32,000 bases of DNA, from the NCBI RefSeq assembly GCF_000018465.1, contig NC_010085.1:870001-902000 (forward strand), given 5' to 3'. A program made the position numbers and the translations under genes. A model generated the notes under the pieces. The model made no database searches and was not told the origin of the DNA. It saw only the letters and a list, made by a program, of their open reading frames with translations. Shown here in pieces: positions 6,296 through 27,712 of the stretch. This DNA comes from Nitrosopumilus maritimus SCM1. Lineage in GTDB: Archaea; Thermoproteota; Nitrososphaeria; Nitrososphaerales; Nitrosopumilaceae. Every line of letters begins with the position of its first letter. Position 1 is the first letter of the stretch.

Positions 6296-6688
6296 ATGGC
6301 AATATTATCAGTGAATGACGTACAGAGATTAGATGCAGCATGTGTTGAACTGTCAAATGAGGAAAAAGTAAGGCACGTAGGAGGGATTAGTGAATTAGGA
6401 CGATTGGTTGCGGGAGGATTCAAAAAAGGTGTTACCCCTTTGCTTTCAGATGATAAGGTAAGAATGGTCTACATGCAGATGCAACTTGATTTTAACATGA
6501 GACAAGAATTAGACGATATTCTAGGACCTATAGACTATATCACATCTAGACGAACTAATCAGTTGATAATCAGTGTACCAATTGGAGAGAATTTGGTACT
6601 AATTACAGCAGAGCCTGATGCAGATGACAAAAAAATCATCAAAAAAGCAGAAGAAATATTTGACGAAATTACAATTTCTACCATTTAA
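6296..6688 (+). CDS. Hypothetical protein, possibly Roadblock/LC7-like fold
   Basis: 130-aa ORF with a good promoter geometry. There is a weak pattern resemblance (VRHVGGISELGRLVAG ... NLVLITAEPDAD) to Roadblock/LC7 domains. The function call is tentative. Confidence 0.65.
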   Translation: MAILSVNDVQRLDAACVELSNEEKVRHVGGISELGRLVAGGFKKGVTPLLSDDKVRMVYMQMQLDFNMRQELDDILGPIDYITSRRTNQLIISVPIGENLVLITAEPDADDKKIIKKAEEIFDEITISTI

Positions 6689-6753: not shown

Positions 6754-7533
6754 TTACAGAGTTCTAATTTCTGAAAAGAAAAGTTCTAATGAATTTTCAA
6801 ATTGTTTGTTTAGTTTTTGAAGATGTGTGTTTTCTACAGAAAGAGATTCTTGATCAAACCAGGGTGGAGACAAATATAGTGAACGGTTCATCTCAATTTG
6901 AATCCATGGTAAGGGGTTATTTCCATATGTCTTTGTGATGTGACCTCCATGAAATGGGTCATTTAGAGATATTTCTTTTCTATCAATTGAATATGAACTA
7001 GAGATACAATCAGCTAAAAGTTCAAGCATTTCATCTGAACATGTTTTTCCATCCTGATTTGAAAGGCAAAACAATGGTCTTTTTTTGTTGGCACCATCAG
7101 GTGAAATTCCAGGTGCTACAGATGCCATAGAATGACAATCAAGACATAACTGCAAATCCAGTTCTGAAAAACTCTTTTGAAGTGCTCTATGATATGGCAT
7201 GTAATAAAATTCAACAAGCAAATCTCTTAGAGACTCATTAGGTTCTTTTCCTTTGATGTAAATTGGTTTTTCATAACAAGTCATGCTTTTTATCAAACCA
7301 TCAGGATTATCTGGAGGCATGTCTTGTAGGGAACGATTAAGATCTACAAACGCTCTTGCAATATCGGTCTTAATTACACGTTGTACTTTGTCTCCCAAGT
7401 CATATAGTTCTATGACAAAAGGATCAGCATCATCAAACAAATCTTTGTTTGTGATTGTTAAATGTCCATCAAGCTCTGCAGGTTTTTTCAATCCTCCATG
7501 GGGAATGGATAGCAATACTGGAAATTTTTTCAT
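6754..7533 (-). CDS. N-formylglutamate amidohydrolase (FGase) family hydrolase
   Basis: 259 aa with family-like motifs: LSIPHGG near the N-terminus, ARAFVDLNR, LDCHSM, NDPFHGGH and IQIEMNRSLY. Its ATG overlaps the stop of the upstream GGT gene (ATGA). Confidence 0.8.
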   Translation of the reverse strand: MKKFPVLLSIPHGGLKKPAELDGHLTITNKDLFDDADPFVIELYDLGDKVQRVIKTDIARAFVDLNRSLQDMPPDNPDGLIKSMTCYEKPIYIKGKEPNESLRDLLVEFYYMPYHRALQKSFSELDLQLCLDCHSMASVAPGISPDGANKKRPLFCLSNQDGKTCSDEMLELLADCISSSYSIDRKEISLNDPFHGGHITKTYGNNPLPWIQIEMNRSLYLSPPWFDQESLSVENTHLQKLNKQFENSLELFFSEIRTL

Positions 7534-9155
7534 CTTAATCCTTCTGCTGTTCCATCACGTCTGACTTCGGCAACTCCTTGAAAACCATCTCCAGTTTGAC
7601 GTTTGAGTACAGCATGAATTGCACCCAAAAAGAAAGAGTATCGCTCTCTAATGTCAATTTTATATCCCATTTTTTTGAGATGTTTAATTATTTCAACAAG
7701 CGAATCGTCGTCCTCCAAACTAATTTTTCCATCAACAGTACAATGGATTCTAGGTTTTTCCATGGCTTGATCTATGGAATTATTGTGATCAATTACTCGA
7801 GAAATAAAATGACTCAATGTTGAAAATATTCTTGCACTGCCTGGAGTTCCCAATACCATCCATGGTTCATGATTGTAAAAAATTATTGAAGGACATACAG
7901 ATGTCCATGGAATAGCATTTGGACGTAGATAGAATGGATGGTTTGGATTATCAAACTCATATGCAGACATGTAATTATTATACAAAAATCCCAAACCATC
8001 AGCTGCTGCTTTTGAGCCATAAACCAGTTCTATGGACTGAGTAATTCCCACAGCATTTCCATCCTTGTCCATTACAGAAAGATGTGTTGTATCTTCAGTA
8101 TCAAGGGATTCTTTTAATGGAAGTGTTGGATCAATTGTATCTCTAATAGATTTTGCAAGCGTTTTTGCAAAATTCCTACTCAAGTGAATTTTTTTATCAA
8201 TTTGATGATATGTTTCAGGGTTAAATCTTCGTTGTTCTCTATACAACAATGCCTTTCGATGAGTTTCAGATACATAGTGATATGCTCTTGGAGTCCTAGT
8301 GAGAAACTTGGATGGAAGATTGTTTAACATCATCAACACCAACAACATTGTAGAACCAGCTCCTGGAGGAGGAACAGTATAAACGCGAATACCCCTATAT
8401 CTTCTGCTTATCACTTTTCTCTCAATAGGCATTGGGATTAGTGCAAGGTCTTCCTTTCTTAGGAATCCACGATTTAGTTTCATATCTTTGTCAATTAGTG
8501 TAGAAATCATTCCATGGTAAAATGAACGATAACCATATGTTGCTAATTGCTCAAGAGTGTATGCCAAATCATCTTGTACAAAAAGATCTCCTATTTCATA
8601 TGGTACTTCGCCGTCTTTAAGAAAATACTTTGCGCCAGATTTTGATTTAACTTTAAAGAAATTTTTGAGATGTTTTTCTTGCAGTTCATATTGTAGTTTT
8701 GTAATTCTATATCCTCTTTTAGCAATACGAATTGATGGTTTTACAATGGTTGACCAATCCAATTGCCCATATCGTTCATTAAGATAACCTAATGTTGCCA
8801 CAGTACTTGGCACAGTGGTTGCCTTGTACCCAATGAGGCTGCGAGAGCGTTTTTCAAAAAACGATATGTGTGCTAAAGAAGGAGCCCTGCTTGAACCATC
8901 AACAGCAAATGTCTTTCCATCAACATGCAAGATAGCCATTGATTGTCCGCCTATTCCGGATGCCTGAGGTTCACACACTCCCAAGGCCAATGCAGTAGCA
9001 CAAGCAGCATCTACTGCATTTCCTCCTTTTTTGAGCATTTCAACTCCTGCCTTTGTTGCATCAGGAAATGCAGATGCAACCATCCCATTTTTTGCAACAG
9101 AGCACTTTTTGTTCTTAGTTGTAACAAATGATTTTTCTATAGAACTTACATCCAA
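7530..9155 (-). CDS. ggt: Gamma-glutamyltransferase family protein
   Basis: 541 aa with GMVASAFPDATKAGVEMLKKGGNAVDAACATALALGV at the N-terminus and the autoprocessing/nucleophile region DTTHLSVMDKDGNAVGITQSIE. The track start is TTG (9155); an alternative ATG lies at 9083 (MVASAF...). Confidence 0.9.
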   Translation of the reverse strand: MDVSSIEKSFVTTKNKKCSVAKNGMVASAFPDATKAGVEMLKKGGNAVDAACATALALGVCEPQASGIGGQSMAILHVDGKTFAVDGSSRAPSLAHISFFEKRSRSLIGYKATTVPSTVATLGYLNERYGQLDWSTIVKPSIRIAKRGYRITKLQYELQEKHLKNFFKVKSKSGAKYFLKDGEVPYEIGDLFVQDDLAYTLEQLATYGYRSFYHGMISTLIDKDMKLNRGFLRKEDLALIPMPIERKVISRRYRGIRVYTVPPPGAGSTMLLVLMMLNNLPSKFLTRTPRAYHYVSETHRKALLYREQRRFNPETYHQIDKKIHLSRNFAKTLAKSIRDTIDPTLPLKESLDTEDTTHLSVMDKDGNAVGITQSIELVYGSKAAADGLGFLYNNYMSAYEFDNPNHPFYLRPNAIPWTSVCPSIIFYNHEPWMVLGTPGSARIFSTLSHFISRVIDHNNSIDQAMEKPRIHCTVDGKISLEDDDSLVEIIKHLKKMGYKIDIRERYSFFLGAIHAVLKRQTGDGFQGVAEVRRDGTAEGLR

Positions 9156-9168
9156 TCTGTTTTTTCTC

Positions 9169-9972
9169 CTAACTATGTGTTATATCCTTTCCACAGTGAG
9201 GACAAGTGTTATTTTTCTGCTCTTTTCTTTTTCTCAATTCTTCTGTAAATGCAGATGCCATGATACCTGTCGGAATAGCATATACTGCGATTCCCAAAAT
9301 AGCTACTATACTACCGACAATTTTTCCCATGAGAGTTATTGGATAAGTATCCCCATATCCAATTGTAGTTAAAGTAATGATTCCCCACCACATAGATGCA
9401 GGAATACTTGAGAAAATCTCTGGTTGAGCATCTTTTTCTGCATGATACATCAGGCTAGATGCAAAAATAAGAACAACAAACAGGATGAAAAATGCGACAG
9501 ACAAATCTCCTGCTTTTGCCTTAAAGACATTACCCAGAGTCTGCATAGAGTCAGAATATCTTGCGAGTTTGAACAATCTAAATAATCTCAAAAGTCGTAT
9601 TATTCTGATGAATCTAATATCCATAACCACAAATGGTAAGAAGAATGGCAATATGGCTGCTAAATCAACTAGCATCATAGGAGTAAAGACAAATCGTAGA
9701 ATTCCAAATTTTTTGTTTTGATATTTTGGGTTTAATTTACAAACAATTATTCTTCCAGCATATTCTAAAGTAAAAACAATTACAGAAAATACTTCAAATG
9801 GAGTGAACAAATAACCATATTCATCCAAAACAGATTCTTCTGTTTCAATAATTACAAAGAGAACATTAACTGAAATTAAAGCTATGATAAAATATTGAAA
9901 TATTTTTGTGATTTTATCATTAGTTGTTCCTTCTAAAATCTCATAGGTTCGTTGAAGTACTTTGTTTGGCAT
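9169..9972 (-). CDS. Voltage-gated-type K+ channel (6TM, S4 Arg ladder, TIGYGD filter) with a short C-terminal CxxC tail
   Basis: 267 aa. S4-like IRFIRIIRLLRLFRLFKLAR, selectivity filter TLTTIGYGD, C-terminus NNTCPHCGKDITHS. Confidence 0.9.
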   Translation of the reverse strand: MPNKVLQRTYEILEGTTNDKITKIFQYFIIALISVNVLFVIIETEESVLDEYGYLFTPFEVFSVIVFTLEYAGRIIVCKLNPKYQNKKFGILRFVFTPMMLVDLAAILPFFLPFVVMDIRFIRIIRLLRLFRLFKLARYSDSMQTLGNVFKAKAGDLSVAFFILFVVLIFASSLMYHAEKDAQPEIFSSIPASMWWGIITLTTIGYGDTYPITLMGKIVGSIVAILGIAVYAIPTGIMASAFTEELRKRKEQKNNTCPHCGKDITHS

Positions 9973-9975
9973 ATG

Positions 9976-11619
9976 TTACAACCATTGTTTTTTCTTAAAC
10001 CACGCAAGCATTGCCATTACAATTATTACCATTACAAAAATCATAACAAAATAACTGCCCTCCCATTCTAATTCAGGAATGTATTGAAAGTTTGTACCAT
10101 AAATTCCAGCAATGAATGTTATTGGAATGAAGATGCTTGCAATTATTGTCAATGTTTTCATGATTTCATTCATTTTATTACTCACACTAGACAGATAGGT
10201 ATCCAACATTCCCCCAATCATATCTCTTAGTCCTTCAATGTTATCCATAACTTGAACAGTATGACCATAAACATCACGAAGGTATCTTTTTGTTCTGTCT
10301 TCAATTAATTCAGAATCAGTTCTCTCCAAACTATCAATCACCTCACGTAGAGGCCAAATGGACTTTCTTAGAACCACCATTTCTCGTTTGAGCGTATGAA
10401 TTACTTCTAATGTTTGAGCAGTAGGATTTGACATTAATTCTTCTTCAAGGACTTCAGTCCTGGCTCCAATGTGTTCCATAACTACGTAAAAGTGGTCTAT
10501 TACTGCATCAATTAGAGCATAAGCAAGATAATCGCTCTTCTTGGTTCTTAATGCGCCTATAGACTTTTCAAGTCTCTCTCTAATTGGATTAAAGACATCA
10601 TCTTCGGTCTCTTGGAAAGATATGACAAAATCTTTTCCCAAAATAAGACTGATCTGCTCCATGAATAATTTTCCTTCATTTGTAATATGAGGTAGTTTTA
10701 AGATCAAAAACAAATTTTCATCTTGGGCGTCTAGTTTGGGTCTTAGTTGTGTGTTCATGATATCGGCTTGTGTAAGGATATGTAGATTATAGTATTGACC
10801 AATTTTCCTAATAAGATCTGGGTTATGAAGTCCTACAATATTGGTCCAAGAAACAAGGGAGTTGTCATGAGTGTTTAAGCAATCATCAATATTTTCAAAA
10901 TCTTTTACGGTGTGATTATTCACATCATATTCAATTTGTTGAATTAATACTTTCTTGACATGCTGTTCACCAACATGCACTAGTGCTCCAGGTTGAAGTC
11001 CAACGGTATCAGATAATGTCGTAACATCATCATCTTTTTTTGACATTAATTTTGAAAATTTGGAAAATTCTGAAATATCAACTTTCTTTGTCAACTCTTT
11101 AACTTTTGCAGTTTTACTAGCAACACCAACTATTATGAATCCAGCAATAATTGAAAATACAATACTTACAACAAGAGGTATAAAATCCCCGTTACTTGCA
11201 GCAGCATAAATAGCCTGAACATCAGTTGCAGAATCAATTTTTACTATAGAGCCAAGTATTGAATCAAGTAAGAAAAACAAGAAAGAGATTATTGCACCAA
11301 TCACAATTGCAGTAACAGCAGTTATTTTTGGAGGGATGTCAATGTCTGGTTCATTTTTGTAAGGAGAGATGTATTTTTTGTATCGTACAATTATCAAAGA
11401 AAGAGCAGTAATAATAATTGTAGAAATAATCCACCAGAAGATAAGCAAGTATCCCTGTTCTTTTTCAATGTGTTCAAATCCAGTGATAAGATCTTGAATG
11501 TTTCCAGTTAAAGGAATGGATAACAAAGACGTAGCAACTGCGACAACGATTTGATACAAAAATGCAAAGACAAAGCCATACACAAGTCGATTTACAACCA
11601 AACCAGCTACATTTGTCAA
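9976..11619 (-). CDS. corA: CorA-family divalent cation (Mg2+/Co2+) transporter with an N-terminal extension of about 190 aa carrying 4 predicted TM helices
   Basis: 547 aa. The C-terminal part has a CorA-like layout ending in two TM helices with IAGIYGTNFQYIPELEW (GTN in place of the canonical GMN). The N-terminal 190 aa contain four long hydrophobic segments in the same uninterrupted frame. TTG start overlaps the CNNM stop (TTGA). Confidence 0.85.
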   Translation of the reverse strand: MTNVAGLVVNRLVYGFVFAFLYQIVVAVATSLLSIPLTGNIQDLITGFEHIEKEQGYLLIFWWIISTIIITALSLIIVRYKKYISPYKNEPDIDIPPKITAVTAIVIGAIISFLFFLLDSILGSIVKIDSATDVQAIYAAASNGDFIPLVVSIVFSIIAGFIIVGVASKTAKVKELTKKVDISEFSKFSKLMSKKDDDVTTLSDTVGLQPGALVHVGEQHVKKVLIQQIEYDVNNHTVKDFENIDDCLNTHDNSLVSWTNIVGLHNPDLIRKIGQYYNLHILTQADIMNTQLRPKLDAQDENLFLILKLPHITNEGKLFMEQISLILGKDFVISFQETEDDVFNPIRERLEKSIGALRTKKSDYLAYALIDAVIDHFYVVMEHIGARTEVLEEELMSNPTAQTLEVIHTLKREMVVLRKSIWPLREVIDSLERTDSELIEDRTKRYLRDVYGHTVQVMDNIEGLRDMIGGMLDTYLSSVSNKMNEIMKTLTIIASIFIPITFIAGIYGTNFQYIPELEWEGSYFVMIFVMVIIVMAMLAWFKKKQWL

Positions 11620-12884
11620 TCTAGATTCTCCTCAAGAGGTTTTTTCTTAGTAATTCGTAAGGAAACAGGTTTGTTTTTTGAAACCTTTTCAACCTTGATT
11701 TCTAATGCATCAATGTTTATGACATTTCCAACTTGAGGAATATCATGAAGTTTCTCATGCAACAAGCCATTTAATGTAGAATAATCATCACCTCTAGGAA
11801 GATTGGATTTGAAGATTTCATTAATCTCGTCTATTTCAATTTCTCCATTTGCAAGAATTACATCATTATTGATTTTTTGATAATGAGGACTCTTTAGATC
11901 AGTCTCATCATGAATTTCGCCAACTATCTCTTCAATAAGATCTTCTAGAGTAACAAGGCCTTCAACGCCACCAAATTCATCAACAACTATGGCCATATGG
12001 GTATTTTTTGCCTGCATTTGTTTGAGAAGTTCGCTCATTCGTTTTTCCTGAGACACATAGATTGGTTCTCTTACAAATTCTCGTAGTTTCATTTTTTGCA
12101 GTTCTTTATCTTTTAGATGTTTGAGAATATCTCTTACATGAAGAATACCAAGTATGTCATCATGATCCTTTCCATATATGGGGATTCTAGAATGACCACT
12201 CTTGTGAATCTTATCTGCAGCTGTAATTAGTTCCATATCTCCATGCAAACTAAACATTCTAGTTCTTGGCATCATTACAGATCTTATCACAGTATCATCA
12301 AATTTGAGAGCACCGTAAAGTAAATCTCGTTCAGATTTTTCTAAAGCTTCATCTCTATGACCCTGAGCAATAATTCCTTTAATTTCATCCTCAGTTAGGG
12401 CAGGAGGTTGATAATCACTTCCAGTTATTTTGATAATTCCACGAGTTATCTTTTCAAGAATCCAAACTGCAGGATAGAAAACATAACTGAATGTTAACAA
12501 AATTCTACTGCATCGTAAAGCAACTTTTGTGGCATTTGCATTACAATAAGTTTTTGGAGTTACTTCACCAAATATTATTACAAGAAAAGTCATAATACCA
12601 ACTGCAATTCCCACTCCGTTATCTCCAAAAATTTCAATTGCAACTATAGTAGCAAGGGATGCAGAGCCTATATTGACAAGATTATTTCCAAGATTGACAC
12701 TAGACATCATCCATCCAGGATTGGCCTTTAATTTCTGAAGAGATTTTGCGCCCTTTACATTATCTTTGACGAGTCTCTCAATTGTGGCTTGACTTGTACC
12801 CACAAGTGCAACTTCAAGACCACTGAAAAAACCAGAAAGACCAATTAGACCTGCAAGTGCAGCTAGTTGATATTCTAAGCTCAA
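11616..12884 (-). CDS. CNNM/CorC-type transporter (DUF21 TM domain, CBS pair, CorC_HlyC C-terminal domain)
   Basis: 422 aa. N-terminus AALAGLIGLSGFFSGLEVALV, typical of DUF21, then VMMPRTRMFSL...HSRIPIY...ILHVRDIL (CBS pair) and MAIVVDEFGGVEGLVTLEDLIEEIVGEI, then a CorC_HlyC-like tail. TTG start overlaps the upstream stop (TTGA). Confidence 0.85.
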   Translation of the reverse strand: MSLEYQLAALAGLIGLSGFFSGLEVALVGTSQATIERLVKDNVKGAKSLQKLKANPGWMMSSVNLGNNLVNIGSASLATIVAIEIFGDNGVGIAVGIMTFLVIIFGEVTPKTYCNANATKVALRCSRILLTFSYVFYPAVWILEKITRGIIKITGSDYQPPALTEDEIKGIIAQGHRDEALEKSERDLLYGALKFDDTVIRSVMMPRTRMFSLHGDMELITAADKIHKSGHSRIPIYGKDHDDILGILHVRDILKHLKDKELQKMKLREFVREPIYVSQEKRMSELLKQMQAKNTHMAIVVDEFGGVEGLVTLEDLIEEIVGEIHDETDLKSPHYQKINNDVILANGEIEIDEINEIFKSNLPRGDDYSTLNGLLHEKLHDIPQVGNVINIDALEIKVEKVSKNKPVSLRITKKKPLEENLD

Positions 12885-15049
12885 TTTCCACTACACCTAT
12901 ACAACACAGATGCAAGCAGAGCAGAACGTTCTGTGATGCTATCATGAAGTATGTATTCTTGTGTAGAGCGATATTTGTGACCAACAGGACCAAACCCATC
13001 TAGTGCAGGCAATCTTGAAGGCACATTACTAATATCTGAGGACATTATCTGTTCATGGCGTCTTATTTTTAATTCATGTTTTTTAGCCAAATCTTCTACT
13101 TGCTCGTAGAATTTTTTATCAGATTCTTCTTCAATGACTGGAGGTCTTGTTTGTATTTGATTAATTGCAACTTCCAAATTTTTTTGTCCGGATTCTTTTT
13201 TTTGCATAATAGTTCGAATTTTAGAATCCATTGTTTTACCTAATGCAGGAGTTTTAAAACTACAAACTATAGATAACGTTGCATAATTTGGCGCATGGCC
13301 ATGAGTGCCTTGAGCTATAACAGATGTTGTTCTCAGACGATAATTTTTTTCATCTTTTGAAAGTTTTTCAATTGCTGTAATCTTTTTACCAAGTATAGGA
13401 ATTATTCCATGAATATCAGAGGATGTGGAATTAGGAGTGGTGAATCGAATTTGATAGTCATTTCTTCCATAACAAGTAGTAATTATACCTCCATCTTTGC
13501 TTGCAGATTTTAATCCTATAACATACTTTGATTTTTTAGAATATTGTTGGACAAGTTTTTTACTAAAACGTCCGCCTAGACTATCATCGGTTGTAAGCAA
13601 GACACCACATTTTATTTTCTTTAGACGTTTTGCAAAGCGTAAAGCATGCAATGCACCCAGCATTACAGTTAGACCGCCCTTACTTTCAGCTATTCCTGAA
13701 CCGTAAATCCTATCATCATCTTCAAAATACGAGATTAAATCATTTGGACCATAATGAGTATCCATATGAGATATTATCAGAACATCGTTTTTCTCATCCT
13801 CATGGTTCTTAAAATAATGAAAATCTCCAATCTCAAACTGCCTGTGCAAATGCTCAGAGAAGCCCAAGTGTTTCATCCTCCTAGACAACATTGTGCCTAA
13901 TTTGTTTACATTATCGATGTTATGTACATGCGTATTCAAGTTAACAAAATCTTTCAAAGTGTCTTTTTGGTTTTGTAGGTGACTTCTCAGATAAGTGCGT
14001 GCAACAATCCGCAGTGGTTGTGTAAGGTCAGGTTCATGTTCAGTTTCAGGCAATTGAGACGAACCAAAATATCTCATGGTTGCAACGTCTAAAATTTTAT
14101 TGATTAAAGATTCGTAAGTGTATCCAGCTGTTTTTGCGGCATAAAACAAAGAACCACCCATTCCCAAACTCGCCATGGAATTTAGTTCTAGAATGTAGAT
14201 ATTCTCATCTTTATCCATTCTAAAGTCAACTCTAGTATAGTCATTAAGACCCAAAGCTGTGAATGCATCAATGCAAATCTTTTTCATATATTCTGTTTTT
14301 TCTTTGGATAATTTTGCAGGACATGTTTTATCAACACCACCTGTTTTCTTTTTATCTGAAATTGTTTGAATTTTGTCAGGATCTCCAAGATTAATTTCAA
14401 CGATTGGAAGAACCTCAATGTTTGGACTGTTCCCAATTAATCCTACTGCAAACTCTCGTCCAGAGATAAATTGTTCTACTAGAATGTCTTGTTGATATTT
14501 TTCAATCTGAACTTTGACAGCATTTCGCAAATCATCCCAATTATCAACTACTTCCATTCCCATAGAAGTTGATTCTAGTTTTGGTTTTACAATTACGGGG
14601 AAAACTAGATCATCAAATTTATCGTCTGGTGTCTTGAATACCCAAAAACCAGGGGTTGGGATATTATTTTTTTGAAGAACAATTTTGGTCATCACCTTAT
14701 CTTGTACAATTGCATGACCTGCAGGACCAGAGCCAATGTAAGGAATCCCAAGCATCTCCATCATGGCTGGAACATGTGTGTACCTATTTTGCCCTTGAAT
14801 TCCATATGCCATATTGAAAACCATCCCTGGCTTTTCGCCTGAAACTACTTTGGGCATAAACTCACGTAATTCATCAGCAAGATGGATATCACCTTCAATA
14901 ACTTTGACAGAATGACCTCCTTTCTCTAATGCTCTTGCAACTCTTTCAACAGCTTTTGAGCTGTAATGCTCTTTTGTTGTCATTCCAAAAACATTGATGA
15001 CATCATTTGGATCTATCTTCTTTTCATTATAGATTAGTGATACTTTCAT
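12881..15049 (-). CDS. Fusion protein: D-Ala-D-Ala-ligase-type ATP-grasp domain (N-terminal half) plus M20 metallopeptidase-like domain (C-terminal half)
   Basis: ATP-grasp motifs: MKVSLIYNE..., GIPYIGSG, QDKVMTK, EQFISGREFAVG, TRVDFRMDKDENIYILELNS. M20-like motifs: IISHMDTHYGP, GSGIAESKGG, LLTTDDSLGG, GFGPVGHKYRSTQEY. I prefer the ATG at 15049 (MKVSLIY) over the track start at 15112, because the extra 21 codons overlap the upstream mini-ORF and Ddl-like proteins typically begin at this motif. Confidence 0.85.
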   Translation of the reverse strand: MKVSLIYNEKKIDPNDVINVFGMTTKEHYSSKAVERVARALEKGGHSVKVIEGDIHLADELREFMPKVVSGEKPGMVFNMAYGIQGQNRYTHVPAMMEMLGIPYIGSGPAGHAIVQDKVMTKIVLQKNNIPTPGFWVFKTPDDKFDDLVFPVIVKPKLESTSMGMEVVDNWDDLRNAVKVQIEKYQQDILVEQFISGREFAVGLIGNSPNIEVLPIVEINLGDPDKIQTISDKKKTGGVDKTCPAKLSKEKTEYMKKICIDAFTALGLNDYTRVDFRMDKDENIYILELNSMASLGMGGSLFYAAKTAGYTYESLINKILDVATMRYFGSSQLPETEHEPDLTQPLRIVARTYLRSHLQNQKDTLKDFVNLNTHVHNIDNVNKLGTMLSRRMKHLGFSEHLHRQFEIGDFHYFKNHEDEKNDVLIISHMDTHYGPNDLISYFEDDDRIYGSGIAESKGGLTVMLGALHALRFAKRLKKIKCGVLLTTDDSLGGRFSKKLVQQYSKKSKYVIGLKSASKDGGIITTCYGRNDYQIRFTTPNSTSSDIHGIIPILGKKITAIEKLSKDEKNYRLRTTSVIAQGTHGHAPNYATLSIVCSFKTPALGKTMDSKIRTIMQKKESGQKNLEVAINQIQTRPPVIEEESDKKFYEQVEDLAKKHELKIRRHEQIMSSDISNVPSRLPALDGFGPVGHKYRSTQEYILHDSITERSALLASVLYRCSGN

Positions 15050-15084
15050 GAGATATTCACAATATTTTTTGATTGTATTTAATT

Positions 15085-15246
15085 TTAATTTGGTTGGGAT
15101 TTGAGAATCCATGCCTGTTCATTGACATCATGACATTTGCAGTCAGGAGCCTTACCTTTACAGTTTTTTTGGTGTAACTTTGCATCACATTTGTTACAGT
15201 CAGGATCTCTCCAACTTGCTTGATTTCCACAATTCGGGCATCGCAT
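15085..15246 (-). CDS. 53-aa Cys-rich zinc-ribbon mini-protein, first gene of the array
   Basis: Own translation, not in the track: MRCPNCGNQASWRDPDCNKCDAKLHQKNCKGKAPDCKCHDVNEQAWILKSQPN. It has two CxxC knuckles plus three more Cys and two His. TATA-like TTTAAA lies 23 nt upstream of the ATG. Confidence 0.45.
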   Translation of the reverse strand: MRCPNCGNQASWRDPDCNKCDAKLHQKNCKGKAPDCKCHDVNEQAWILKSQPN

Positions 15247-15269
15247 ATATTTTGATATTTCTTTAATGC

Positions 15270-15275
15270 TTTAAA
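15270..15275 (-). promoter_or_regulatory. TATA-like box (TTTAAA) for the mini-ORF / ATP-grasp array
   Basis: The minus strand reads TTCTTTAAAGC, with 23 nt between the box and the ATG at 15246. Confidence 0.4.
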
Positions 15276-15568
15276 GAATGATGTTTTTGAGTTCATACAA
15301 AAACCAAATAACTAGTTGTTTTAATTCAGATCCAAGTCAACTAAAATGAAACAAAAAATGGCATCATACAACTAATTATCCAAATACTGCACACCTATGA
15401 TTAAATAAAAAAGTGTCAAGTGTTTGTCAATGAATTTTCAGATATGAAATTAACTACTTTTTTGAAGAATTACTATCATGGTAAAAGAATTCTTTGAATT
15501 CATCTGGGATTTGGTCTCAGGAAACTAATTTTTCTTTTTTTCTAATTGTTATGTTACAACAGATTTGA

Positions 15569-18127: not shown

Positions 18128-18601
18128 ATGTATAAAGCCATACTTGTTCCTCATGCAGGAACTCCAGCAGGAGACAATGCACTAAAACATGCAATACATG
18201 CTGCAAAGAATTCATCTGCCAAGATAATAATCCTACACATTATTGAAGAGATTCAAAGGCCACCAATATCATTTGGTCTAGCAGAGTCAGAAAGAGAGAA
18301 AATATTTGACAGTATCAAAGATGCAAATGAATCAATACGTCAAGAGATGGAAAAAGTGATGGAAAAACTTAGTCAACAATGCAATGATGAAAGCATTGAA
18401 ACCAAAGTTAAAGTTGAGATGGGAGATGCAGCTGAGATCATTCTAGATACAATTCAAAATGAGAATATAGATTTAGTCGTAATGGCAAAACGTAGAAAAT
18501 TAAAAGGAGTAAAAAAACTGTTGTCACTAGGAAGCGTATCTAGAAAAGTAGTAGAAAATGTTACTTGTCCGGTTATTTTGCTTGATGTTGATAATACTTA
18601 G
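18128..18601 (+). CDS. Universal stress protein (UspA family)
   Basis: 157 aa. YKAILVPHAGTPAGDNALKHAI...IIILHI...DLVVMAKRR...LGSVSRKVVENVTCPVILL is the canonical USP layout. Confidence 0.9.
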   Translation: MYKAILVPHAGTPAGDNALKHAIHAAKNSSAKIIILHIIEEIQRPPISFGLAESEREKIFDSIKDANESIRQEMEKVMEKLSQQCNDESIETKVKVEMGDAAEIILDTIQNENIDLVVMAKRRKLKGVKKLLSLGSVSRKVVENVTCPVILLDVDNT

Positions 18602-19411: not shown

Positions 19412-20212
19412 TTACTCTTTTAGTTTGCTTTCTTTGAATATATCAGAGCCATACCAACAATATCTAAAATAGTCAAGACACCATTCATGGAACATTGGGT
19501 CATCAGAATAGAGCATCTCACTAATGTCAGACTCACCATCCAATGTAGGAAACATTATGCAGGCTTCTTTTTCGTTTAGAACAACTACTGTTTTGACATC
19601 CTTTTCCATCTTTCTTTCAACGAGTCCCTTTTCCATAAGCTTGTCAAATCCAAGTTTTTTTAGCAATGTCTTTCTTCCCTTTGGAACGACAGCAGACTCT
19701 GAAAAGATATAGTTGAATCGTATACCCTTCTTGACTCTTTTTACAAGCGGTTCAATAAGATCAAGTGGAACTTCAGATAAAATCTCATAGACGTATTCAT
19801 CAGAATTTTTGTATATAGTCTTCCAGGTTTCTAAAACTTTGGATACTCCCTTTACATATTGGGAGTTTGCTAATTGTCCACAACGCATTTGAAACTTGTG
19901 TGGGACATCACCAAAATTGTGTTCTTCAAAATATTTTCTGTTTTGTGACAAAAACACAAGTGATGGGACCTGTGTGCATACAACTTGACCAAATGTTGTA
20001 AGAGAGTACGTTCCTCCAACATTTTTCTTTATCAATCCGGCTTTTTCCAATCTTGAAAAATTTCTGTGTACTTCTTGTTTTGTAGAGTCGATGCTTTTGG
20101 CAAAAGCAGTAGGGGTGGATTGTTTTGTTAGCAATCCAATCAGTATGCTTAATCTCTGAGAGCTTGCAAGCTCCAAGACATAATCTGCAGTCTCATCAAT
20201 CAAGTCAGCCAT
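19412..20212 (-). CDS. Archaeal wHTH transcriptional regulator (ArsR-like N-terminus with a C-terminal FilR1/DUF1724-like domain)
   Basis: 266 aa. SQRLSILIGLLTKQSTPTAFAKSIDSTKQEVHRNFSRLEKAGLIKKNVGGTYSLTTFG is a wHTH. The overall length and C-terminal pattern resemble archaeal DUF1724 regulators; the domain name is tentative. Confidence 0.8.
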   Translation of the reverse strand: MADLIDETADYVLELASSQRLSILIGLLTKQSTPTAFAKSIDSTKQEVHRNFSRLEKAGLIKKNVGGTYSLTTFGQVVCTQVPSLVFLSQNRKYFEEHNFGDVPHKFQMRCGQLANSQYVKGVSKVLETWKTIYKNSDEYVYEILSEVPLDLIEPLVKRVKKGIRFNYIFSESAVVPKGRKTLLKKLGFDKLMEKGLVERKMEKDVKTVVVLNEKEACIMFPTLDGESDISEMLYSDDPMFHEWCLDYFRYCWYGSDIFKESKLKE

Positions 20213-23091: not shown

Positions 23092-26105
<3,014 letters not shown>

Positions 26106-26240
26106 TACACGACTATGCACGACGATCATTGCAGGTCTCCTGGCAGAGACCCACTACATCCTTCATACATCACTTTTGGTGATGCATTGCATCGATGATT
26201 TGATGTGAAGATTAGTGCATCCGTACACTTTCCTTATCTA
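26106..26240 (-). other. 16S-23S internal transcribed spacer, no tRNA
   Basis: About 135 nt between the rRNAs. It carries halves of both processing stems and has no cloverleaf or T-loop sequence. Confidence 0.8.

Positions 26241-27712
<1,472 letters not shown>

Follow-up and report, generated by a model that had tools for sequence, protein, structure and literature searches.

In silico analysis of a 32,000-nucleotide stretch of Nitrosopumilaceae DNA (contig NC_010085.1, positions 870,001 to 902,000; the whole stretch is referred to below as the window) revealed an array of seven genes on the minus strand, encoding successively a Cys/His-rich mini-protein, an ATP-grasp::M20 fusion (AGM20, the ligase), a CNNM/CorC protein, an extended CorA, a Kv channel, a GGT-family and an FGase-family amidohydrolase. 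This gene order had been proposed earlier from the letters alone (the sequence-only reading), and the Pfam matches agree with it. Of that first description as a seven-gene array, the idea that the genes act as one unit is retained, and the fixed composition is replaced by a modular one: an enzyme trio (ligase, GGT and FGase), an optional three-gene ion cassette (CNNM, CorA and Kv) and an optional mini gene. On balance, we lean towards regarding the array as a functional unit with an ion or osmotic link.

The enzyme part of the array is not restricted to the family of the window. Full-length homologues of the fusion, at 29-56% identity, have been retrieved by an exhaustive HMMER search from ANME-1/Methanophagales, Methanosarcinales, a 'Halobacteriota archaeon', Defluviicoccus sp. 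and unclassified bacteria, and the trio with its 4-nt overlaps recurs in distant archaea and bacteria. Judged from sequence comparison, ligase, GGT and FGase appear to constitute an ancient three-enzyme module. A metagenome scan with the family alignment added 80 loci, and clustering at 70% identity gave 30 lineages. The GGT gene is operonic in 15 of these, and the FGase gene is present in nine; MscS is found nearby in 14 (in a same-strand chain in 11), CorA, MgtE or CNNM in eight, K+ systems in four, and any ion or mechanosensitive-channel gene in 15.

The individual neighbourhoods illustrate how varied these ion genes are. In a Halobacteriota archaeon (L056) the trio is followed by TrkA_C, an Ion_trans_2 K+ channel, a Na/H exchanger and KhtT, and in L060 it adjoins CNNM-CorA-TrkA_C-Usp-P-type ATPase. 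An alphaproteobacterial contig (L062) carries MscS-MscS-MgtE_N-MgtE-ligase-GGT-FGase on one strand with junctions of 35/-4/-4, and in L059 an MscS gene lies 5 kb from the module. Among the further arrangements are trio-MscS-MgtE_N-MgtE-CNNM (L086), trio-MscS-MgtE (L105), trio-CorA (L098), trio-MscS-amino-acid permease (L103), GATase-ligase-MgtE (L127) and GATase-ligase-BON, the last being BON/OsmY-like (L110), whereas two tandem MscS-ligase pairs, a third MscS and a Na/H exchanger are gathered within 22 kb in L132. The connection of amide-bond enzymes with ion transport, suggested earlier from the window, is thus met again in remote archaea and bacteria, where the transporters are non-homologous. 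The functional link is best argued from this recurrence, because the non-homologous Mg2+ transporters CorA, CNNM and MgtE are used in different phyla. As a separate observation, the Halobacteriota locus bears, 4-7 kb upstream of its trio (L056 1958-5468), a radical-SAM gene with a lysine-aminomutase C-terminal domain, GNAT/AdoMet_dc and a second, stand-alone Ddl-like ATP-grasp, a gene set which resembles beta-amino-acid osmolyte (abl-type) genes.

Within the Nitrosopumilaceae, 45 related loci have been compared by tblastn and clustering of open reading frames (ORFs), with the ligase as anchor and one ORF caller for all. The nearest relatives of the window belong to Nitrosopumilus and Nitrosarchaeum. 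Synteny is conserved and the orthologues are not scattered, in agreement with the unit proposed at the beginning. The ligase-GGT-FGase core is present in nearly all loci, and an intact cassette always sits between ligase and GGT and reads CNNM-CorA-Kv. The full six-gene form has been identified in the window and in L001, L003, L015, L034, L040 and L065; ligase-CorA-Kv-GGT-FGase in L011, L024, L029, L033 and N. piranensis D3C (L051); CNNM and/or CorA only in L007, L019, L027 and L028; and the trio, free of ion genes and with 4-nt overlaps, in L016, L023 and throughout the clade at about 55% identity (L035-L042). A separate mini-CNNM-CorA-Kv unit, headed by the mini gene, is seen in L009 and L020. 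In L010 (about 12142-14050) an 86-aa remnant of the K+ channel is followed by a 554-aa TnpB/OrfB_IS605 (Cas12f-like TNB) ORF between ligase and GGT, so the cassette of this locus appears to be decaying through insertion of an insertion sequence (IS). The varied presence of the cassette indicates therefore that the ion genes form a cassette of three, which was placed between ligase and GGT and has since been lost to varying extents. A TnpB-like ORF similar to that of L010 is located after FGase in L011.

The spacing of the genes in the window has been verified: from the mini gene onwards the six junctions measure 35 nt, -4 (TTGA), -4 (TTGA), +3, +13 and -4 (ATGA), and the three TTG starts belong to CNNM, CorA and GGT. 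In the related loci, the junctions between array genes (n=80) have a median of -1 nt (interquartile range -4 to 19; 74% at or below 15 nt), compared to a median of 40 nt (32% at or below 15 nt) for the other same-strand pairs (n=230) of the same loci (Mann-Whitney p=2e-9). The spacing is thus tighter than the norm of the lineage, and the objection that it reflects nothing but a compact genome is ruled out. The remaining same-strand gaps inside the window are 27-89 nt, and the -4 overlap of GGT and FGase is kept in 21 of 27 relatives.

The distribution of promoter-like and ribosome-binding signals is consistent with this arrangement. The sequence-only reading had noticed no obvious promoter geometry inside the array, except possibly a TTAAATA ahead of the ligase gene; this box is indeed conserved, and the internal genes are nearly devoid of TATA-like boxes. 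A TATA-like hexamer at -45..-24 was found for the ligase gene in 23 of 37 relatives in a first count and in 18 of 31 in a second, stricter one, with a positional peak at -50..-30, whereas in the same interval the internal genes gave 0/9 (CNNM), 0/9 (CorA), 0/8 (Kv), 0/11 (GGT) and 1/27 (FGase). Shine-Dalgarno-like tetramers precede the internal CorA (7/9), GGT (8/11) and FGase (18/27) genes, and the ligase gene in 6/31 cases. This is the pattern that would be expected from a single promoter at the ligase gene with re-initiation at the internal genes, and the TTAAATA box of the window is likely the operon promoter. The mini gene lies upstream of the ligase box and possesses a TATA-like box of its own, TTTAAA, likely its promoter; for this reason the unit is better termed a mini gene plus a six-gene operon. 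The upstream end of the array, placed earlier at 15276, is not a start codon but the base before the TTTAAA box. The features of the array are collected in Table 1.

Table 1. Genes and TATA-like boxes of the array (coordinates of the window)
Feature	Position	Strand	Remarks
Mini-protein	15085..15246	-	53 aa, Cys/His-rich, no family
TTTAAA TATA-like box	15270..15275	-	29 nt upstream of mini ATG (15246); read from sequence
TTAAATA TATA-like box	15076..15082	-	33 nt upstream of ligase ATG; read from sequence
ATP-grasp::M20 fusion (AGM20)	12881..15049	-	722 aa; Pfam, NCBIfam and PDB matches, residue conservation
CNNM/CorB-type transporter	11616..12884	-	CNNM transmembrane domain, CBS pair and CorC_HlyC; TTG start overlaps ligase stop (TTGA)
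CorA-family channel	9976..11619	-	547 aa; TTG start overlaps CNNM stop
Ion_trans K+ channel, voltage-sensor type	9169..9972	-	267 aa
GGT-family Ntn amidohydrolase	7530..9155	-	541 aa
FGase-family amidohydrolase	6754..7533	-	259 aa; ATG overlaps GGT stop (ATGA)

A further element has been noticed in front of the mini gene. A block TAGTTGAyTTrrATCwGAAT...AACTrGTTAT, located at 15306-15346 on the minus strand of the window, 60-100 nt upstream of the mini ATG, is common to the window, L007, L012, L013, L021 and L027 and contains an 8-bp palindrome, AACTAGTT, at 15310-15317. This block may be an operator.

The central enzyme of the array, AGM20, consists of a Ddl-like ATP-grasp (residues about 1-330) and an M20-fold domain (about 360-722), matched in Pfam by Dala_Dala_lig_C (E=4.6e-32) and Peptidase_M20 (PF01546, E=5.5e-12, profile positions 2-205 of 206), respectively. 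Its start, MKVSLIYN, is kept in relatives, the reading frame itself being open to 15112. Among solved structures (PDB matches), D-Ala-D-Ala ligases are the closest for residues about 60-330 (E about 1e-28). Compared to the Pfam match with Ddl, that with RimK is weak (E=3.2e-5). The residues expected of a working ATP-grasp enzyme, that is the ATP-binding Lys, the Mg2+-binding Asp/Glu/Asn and the transition-state Arg (DdlB K97, K144, E180, R255, D257, E270, N272), are represented by K118/K122, K155, E192, R273, D275, E288 and N290, which are invariant in 38 close homologues and conserved in 14 of 16 distant ones. In this respect the fusion resembles Ddl and VanA. It differs from them in the substrate triad E15-S150-Y216, which is broken (Y216 is replaced by Lys, K234), in the absence of the N-terminal GGxSxExEVS/E15 motif, in the M20 fusion and in its archaeal hosts, which are devoid of peptidoglycan. 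The score lies below all NCBIfam Ddl cut-offs (the highest being 166.8 against 243). From these residues the ATP-grasp half is predicted to be an active amide ligase, and not a D-alanine--D-alanine ligase.

The C-terminal half presents the opposite picture. Its best solved match is carboxypeptidase G2 (CPG2; E=1.3e-14 over 345 residues), spanning both catalytic and dimerisation regions, so that the M20 fold is present, but the active-site positions are replaced: CPG2 D141->E455, E175->D489, E176->S490, E200->K514 and H385->R694, all invariant in 38 Nitrosopumilaceae sequences. Four of the five metal ligands and the catalytic Glu (E175) are thereby exchanged, and the only metal ligand retained is H428 (CPG2 H112). 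In the distant members the H112 equivalent is lost too, and the other M20 ligand positions are variable. The domain is thus predicted to be a pseudo-peptidase, a fold deprived of the M20 active site, and the glutamate carboxypeptidase activity considered for it in the sequence-only reading is abandoned. An annotation as 'M20/M25/M40 metallo-hydrolase' or as 'D-alanine--D-alanine ligase' would accordingly be wrong: by its residues, the protein is an ATP-grasp ligase carried on the scaffold of an inactive peptidase.

The two amidohydrolases are likewise recognisable members of their families which depart from the characterised representatives. The nucleophile of the GGT is T356 in a DTTH motif (E. 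coli T391), which does not vary among 32 close and 18 distant partners, whereas the pocket residues that in E. coli GGT hold the free amino and carboxylate groups of the gamma-glutamyl moiety are changed (E. coli N411->E, Q430->Y, D433->A/D, with A in the window; R114 is unaligned), and the score of 347.5 against TIGR00066 remains under the cut-off of 357.85. The annotated 'GGT' would thus represent a subfamily with a remodelled pocket. An N-terminal signal peptide is not apparent by eye, and the enzyme is probably cytoplasmic. The signature DGSSRAPS, TQSIE, LYNNY and PW[TA][ST]V is common to the ligase-adjacent GGTs of ANME-type archaea and bacteria, and this shared cross-domain signature therefore points to a dedicated, co-inherited GGT subfamily tied to AGM20. 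The FGase is matched by its Pfam family over the full length (E=1.5e-45), and its motifs PHGG, DxNR, HSM and QIE align with 2q7s; compared to the HutG equivalog TIGR02017 (cut-off 278.75) it reaches only 102.6 bits.

The three proteins of the ion cassette have been analysed in the same way. The CNNM protein contains the CNNM (DUF21) transmembrane domain, the CBS pair and CorC_HlyC, and it scores below every NCBIfam equivalog cut-off (242.9/475 for CorB-like PRK11573, 141.5/500 for PaeA). The CorA possesses the CorA domain with two C-terminal transmembrane helices (TIGR00383 294.8 against a cut-off of 200.75 bits; Pfam CorA E=5.4e-65). In place of the canonical YGMNF all 20 array-linked CorAs bear YGTNF, whereas YGMNF is present in the module-adjacent CorAs of L060 and L098. 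The domain follows a conserved extension at the N-terminus (about 225 aa), which has no Pfam match and in which four hydrophobic segments of transmembrane type were discerned by eye. The plain annotation 'CorA' should hence be amended by the GTN pore motif and the extension, and the protein may select ions differently from classical CorA. The third protein belongs to Ion_trans (E=1.3e-32); its TTIGYGD filter is invariant in 14/14 sequences, and the Arg/Lys ladder of an S4 segment, RIIRLLRLFRLFKLAR, is present in the sequence. A CPHCG knuckle, located at the extreme C-terminus of the channel (window 9169-9200), is invariant in 14/14 relatives. As the Cys-rich mini-protein heads the same locus, a metal site shared by the two is conceivable.

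The mini-protein contains two conserved Cys/His clusters, C3, C6, C17, C20 and H25, C29, C36, C38, H39, followed by a basic and variable C-terminus. The ORF and its conservation were found in 17 loci, and its 17 protein clusters are all unnamed and give no Pfam match. It is confined to the Nitrosopumilaceae, where it is optional; outside this family, the small ORFs upstream of ANME and bacterial ligases are unrelated and not Cys-rich. An AlphaFold2 model based on an 18-sequence alignment (predicted local distance difference test score, pLDDT, of 56) was unusable. A 79-aa ORF at 15057-15296, which lies over the mini gene in another frame, gave no Pfam match and was rejected, the conserved frame being the 53-aa Cys-rich one. 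Two unrelated small ORFs have been observed at ANME-type ligases, a 29-aa Lys/Glu-only ORF (MKGMAKKKEKKKRKKEKEEEK...) upstream of the gene (L054 660-749) and one of 51 aa which overlaps the start of the ligase (L059 5861-5950); both may be spurious.

A variant of the module exists in eight lineages in which the ligase occurs without GGT and FGase, among them marine Bacteroidales (such as Marinifilum, Carboxylicivirga and Draconibacterium) and Desulfobulbaceae. Here, an overlapping gene for a 190-aa class-I GATase precedes the ligase (Pfam GATase E=1.3e-27; Peptidase_C26 is a weaker match). GGT and class-I GATases both act via gamma-glutamyl-enzyme intermediates, and because of this common property the exchange of one for the other hints, by analogy, at gamma-glutamyl or amide chemistry. 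In Marinifilum fragile (L143 3443-10151) the genes arginine decarboxylase-agmatinase-deoxyhypusine-synthase-like-small ORF-GATase-ligase are located on one strand, and the same polyamine genes adjoin GATase-ligase in varied arrangements in L109, L115, L118 and L120. Upstream of ligase-GGT, L113 carries an arginase-family gene; in L090 a DDAH/ADI-like gene has been found. In L109, moreover, an MscS gene is placed between GATase and ligase.

Taken together, these proteins allow a mechanism to be proposed. The ligase would use ATP to make a small, amide-linked metabolite bearing a carboxylate or an amine, the pseudo-M20 domain probably serving as a binding or oligomerisation scaffold, and the GGT-like and FGase-like hydrolases would break this metabolite down. 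Most likely this would be a glutamyl-type compound or an amide that serves the cell as organic counter-ion or osmolyte; a putative K+/glutamate osmolyte role is plausible, and a role in polyamine conjugation is an alternative of similar standing. As to the product itself, a glutamyl-type solute can be named tentatively, and a polyamine conjugate is the somewhat less probable candidate. The cassette would supply a CNNM/CorB-type exporter of Mg2+ (or another cation), a CorA-type channel with the GTN pore and a voltage-sensor K+ channel, the directions of flux being presumed. Co-expression would then allow the organic charged-solute pool and the Mg2+ and K+ fluxes to be adjusted together in ionic or osmotic shifts. 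A wider proposal, which we put forward as speculative and somewhat unlikely, is that the ligase with its GGT-like or GATase-like partner forms a widespread, undescribed pathway of marine and sediment archaea and bacteria, converting a major charged solute reversibly into an amide conjugate and serving as a buffer wired to ion fluxes. If true, the conjugate, either glutamyl in nature or formed with a polyamine such as putrescine or homospermidine, would be a tunable organic-ion buffer connected to Mg2+, K+ and mechanosensitive channels, and ammonia-oxidising archaea would possess a second system of osmotic and cation adaptation beside ectoine.

Several observations weigh against a functional unit of this kind. 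Ion and mechanosensitive-channel genes are concentrated close to the module (18/133 at three positions or fewer against 7/182 at five or more; Fisher p=0.0025), but the test depends on crude ORF calls, home-made hidden Markov model labels and lineages that are not fully independent, and without the lineage of the window it falls to 15/127 against 7/152 (p=0.043). About half of the lineages have no ion gene near the enzyme module in the available DNA, which makes the coupling facultative, and in several Nitrosopumilaceae the cassette is lost, split or hit by an IS (L009, L010, L020). Co-transcription of the array genes is deduced from sequence proxies. The GTN pore leaves the Mg2+ selectivity of the CorA less than assured. 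The pairing of the ligase with GATase and polyamine genes in Bacteroidales points to a different chemistry. Because the M20 domain is dead, the GGT pocket is replaced and the FGase, far below the HutG cut-off, is no HutG equivalog, the gamma-glutamyl or N-acyl-glutamate chemistry that the sequence-only reading derived from these three families is reduced to a family-level prior.

One alternative is the chance co-location of the two parts: a variable genomic island gathers transporter genes, and the cassette landed inside an unrelated enzyme operon. The state of the cassette across relatives (present, partial, split off or IS-disrupted), the clade in which the trio stands alone and the many other transporters near the relatives' loci, such as Na/H exchangers and SDF symporters, would all suit such an island. 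It is rather unlikely nonetheless, as Halobacteriota, Alphaproteobacteria and other bacteria independently place CorA, CNNM, MgtE, MscS or K+ systems beside the module, and in the Nitrosopumilaceae the start/stop overlaps of the cassette with its enzyme neighbours are kept, with TATA-like boxes in none or one case per internal gene. A comparably low probability is assigned to the alternative that the ligase acylates a polyamine or its precursor (e.g. by gamma-glutamylation) and that the conjugate is later cleaved by GGT/FGase or the GATase-like partner, giving a reversible polycation buffer co-regulated with Mg2+/K+ transport. It draws on the polyamine, arginase-family and DDAH/ADI-like genes described above, and on Salmonella, in which Mg2+ and polyamine pools are co-regulated and the CNNM-family PaeA exports polyamines (PMC9972920, PMC12421838). 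Polyamine genes, however, occur in only 4 of the 30 lineages, mostly marine Bacteroidales whose shared ancestry may inflate the signal; none is found in the window or in the Nitrosopumilaceae loci, and the CNNM of the window scores nearer to CorB/YfjD than to PaeA.

Two further explanations have been considered. Salvage of peptides or nitrogen, in which GGT, FGase and M20 degrade imported gamma-glutamyl or N-acyl peptides, is difficult to reconcile with an M20 domain lacking its metal ligands and catalytic Glu, with an ATP-consuming ligase as the invariant part, with a GGT that is probably cytoplasmic by the lack of an evident signal peptide, and with the absence of any peptide transporter in the window or the archaeal loci. 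We regard it as quite improbable, even though all three families include catabolic amidases and one fusion (L058) adjoins an Opp-type peptide ABC transporter, GGT and a canonical M20. A system similar to LysW/LysX/LysK was suggested by the parts list, a small CxxC...CxxC protein encoded directly upstream of an ATP-grasp::M20, with the zinc-ribbon mini-protein as substrate carrier and the M20 as release hydrolase. This reading is largely refuted and has very little left in its favour: the tail of the mini-protein is basic and variable instead of the acidic EDWGE type, the ATP-grasp is Ddl-like with its weak RimK match, the M20 is inactive, and a conserved TATA-like box separates the ligase gene from the mini gene. 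Furthermore, the mini-protein is absent from most ligase lineages and also heads the transporter units of L009 and L020. Membership of the LysW/LysX/LysK system was rejected on the tail, the RimK match and the M20 domain.

The array, read as a functional unit with an ion or osmotic link, may be compared with several known systems, although by its residues the locus appears to fit no characterised pathway, departing from Ddl, the M20 active site, the GGT pocket, HutG and the GMN pore alike. The hyp-ectABCD-mscS cluster of Nitrosopumilus maritimus, reportedly described by Widderich and colleagues in 2016, is said to be an osmolyte-synthesis operon with a channel gene, the kind of system that comes closest to the array. 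Both systems, within the same archaeal family, bring solute-metabolism enzymes and a membrane channel into one transcription unit (here a presumed one), and MscS is the most frequent neighbour of the module in bacterial relatives; in the present array, however, the enzymes are an ATP-grasp ligase and two amidohydrolases and the channels are of CorA, CNNM and Kv type, not MscS. In the N-acetylglutaminylglutamine amide (NAGGN) pathway AsnO/Ngg, attributed to Sagot and colleagues (work of 2010), an ATP-grasp-type ligase is likewise said to make a glutamyl dipeptide osmolyte. The ATP-grasp ligase is common to both, and the amidotransferase supplying the amide of NAGGN parallels the GATase-ligase pairs of Bacteroidales and Desulfobulbaceae. 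The differences relate to Ngg, which combines a GNAT with another ATP-grasp subfamily, to AsnO, an Ntn-type amidotransferase, and to the dead M20, the GGT/FGase partners and the transporter linkage, all missing from NAGGN.

Glutathionylspermidine synthetase/amidase (GspSA) joins, as AGM20 does, an ATP-dependent amide ligase and a hydrolase-fold domain in one polypeptide, and its substrate is a glutamyl-peptide/polyamine conjugate relevant to cation pools. In contrast to the dead M20, the amidase (CHAP) of GspSA is active; here hydrolysis would be left to the separate GGT and FGase genes, and the folds are unrelated. The Salmonella circuit of MgtA/B, PaeA and CorC/MgpA resembles the array in the joint management of organic and inorganic cation pools and in the use of CNNM-family exporters (PMC9972920, PMC12421838), but it is a dispersed PhoPQ regulon with no single operon and no ligase/amidohydrolase module. 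In B. subtilis, the osmotic response includes Mg2+ homeostasis (PMC8844918). A full-text literature search brought up no account of the trio or its link to transporters, a novelty limited to the searchable literature, with the main amidoligase-neighbourhood survey lying outside it.

Archaea of the Nitrosopumilus type count among the most abundant cells of the ocean, and little is known of their ion handling beyond ectoine synthesis. The module lies repeatedly next to CorA, CNNM, MgtE, MscS, K+ systems and polyamine genes, which suggests that cation and osmotic homeostasis includes a small-molecule component not recognised so far. In Data Set S1 of Bayer et al. 2019 (PMC6593220) the consecutive N. 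maritimus SCM1 ids 641316647 to 641316642 are listed, successively, as 'D-alanine-D-alanine ligase', 'protein of unknown function', CorA, 'Ion transport protein', GGT and FGase. We infer that the orthogroup of 641316646 is the CNNM/DUF21 family, and from the order of the ids N. maritimus SCM1 probably carries the same array. The operon is present in N. piranensis D3C, a cultured strain, and probably also in SCM1, which makes transcript, metabolite and transport assays feasible.

Outside the array, Rfam and tRNA scans of the window identified the rRNA operon only, with nothing inside the array, no tRNA in the 16S-23S spacer and none elsewhere. This archaeal 16S-23S rRNA operon (23103-27711, minus strand) explains the jump of GC content to about 0.5. 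A DUF6659 gene (6296-6688, plus strand), convergent with FGase, is a recurrent neighbour, with 13 family members in related Nitrosopumilaceae loci. A universal stress protein gene (18128-18601, plus strand) and a gene for an HVO_A0261_N-type winged-helix regulator (19412-20212, minus strand) are located 3-5 kb upstream of the array, and homologues of both are also present upstream of the N. piranensis locus.

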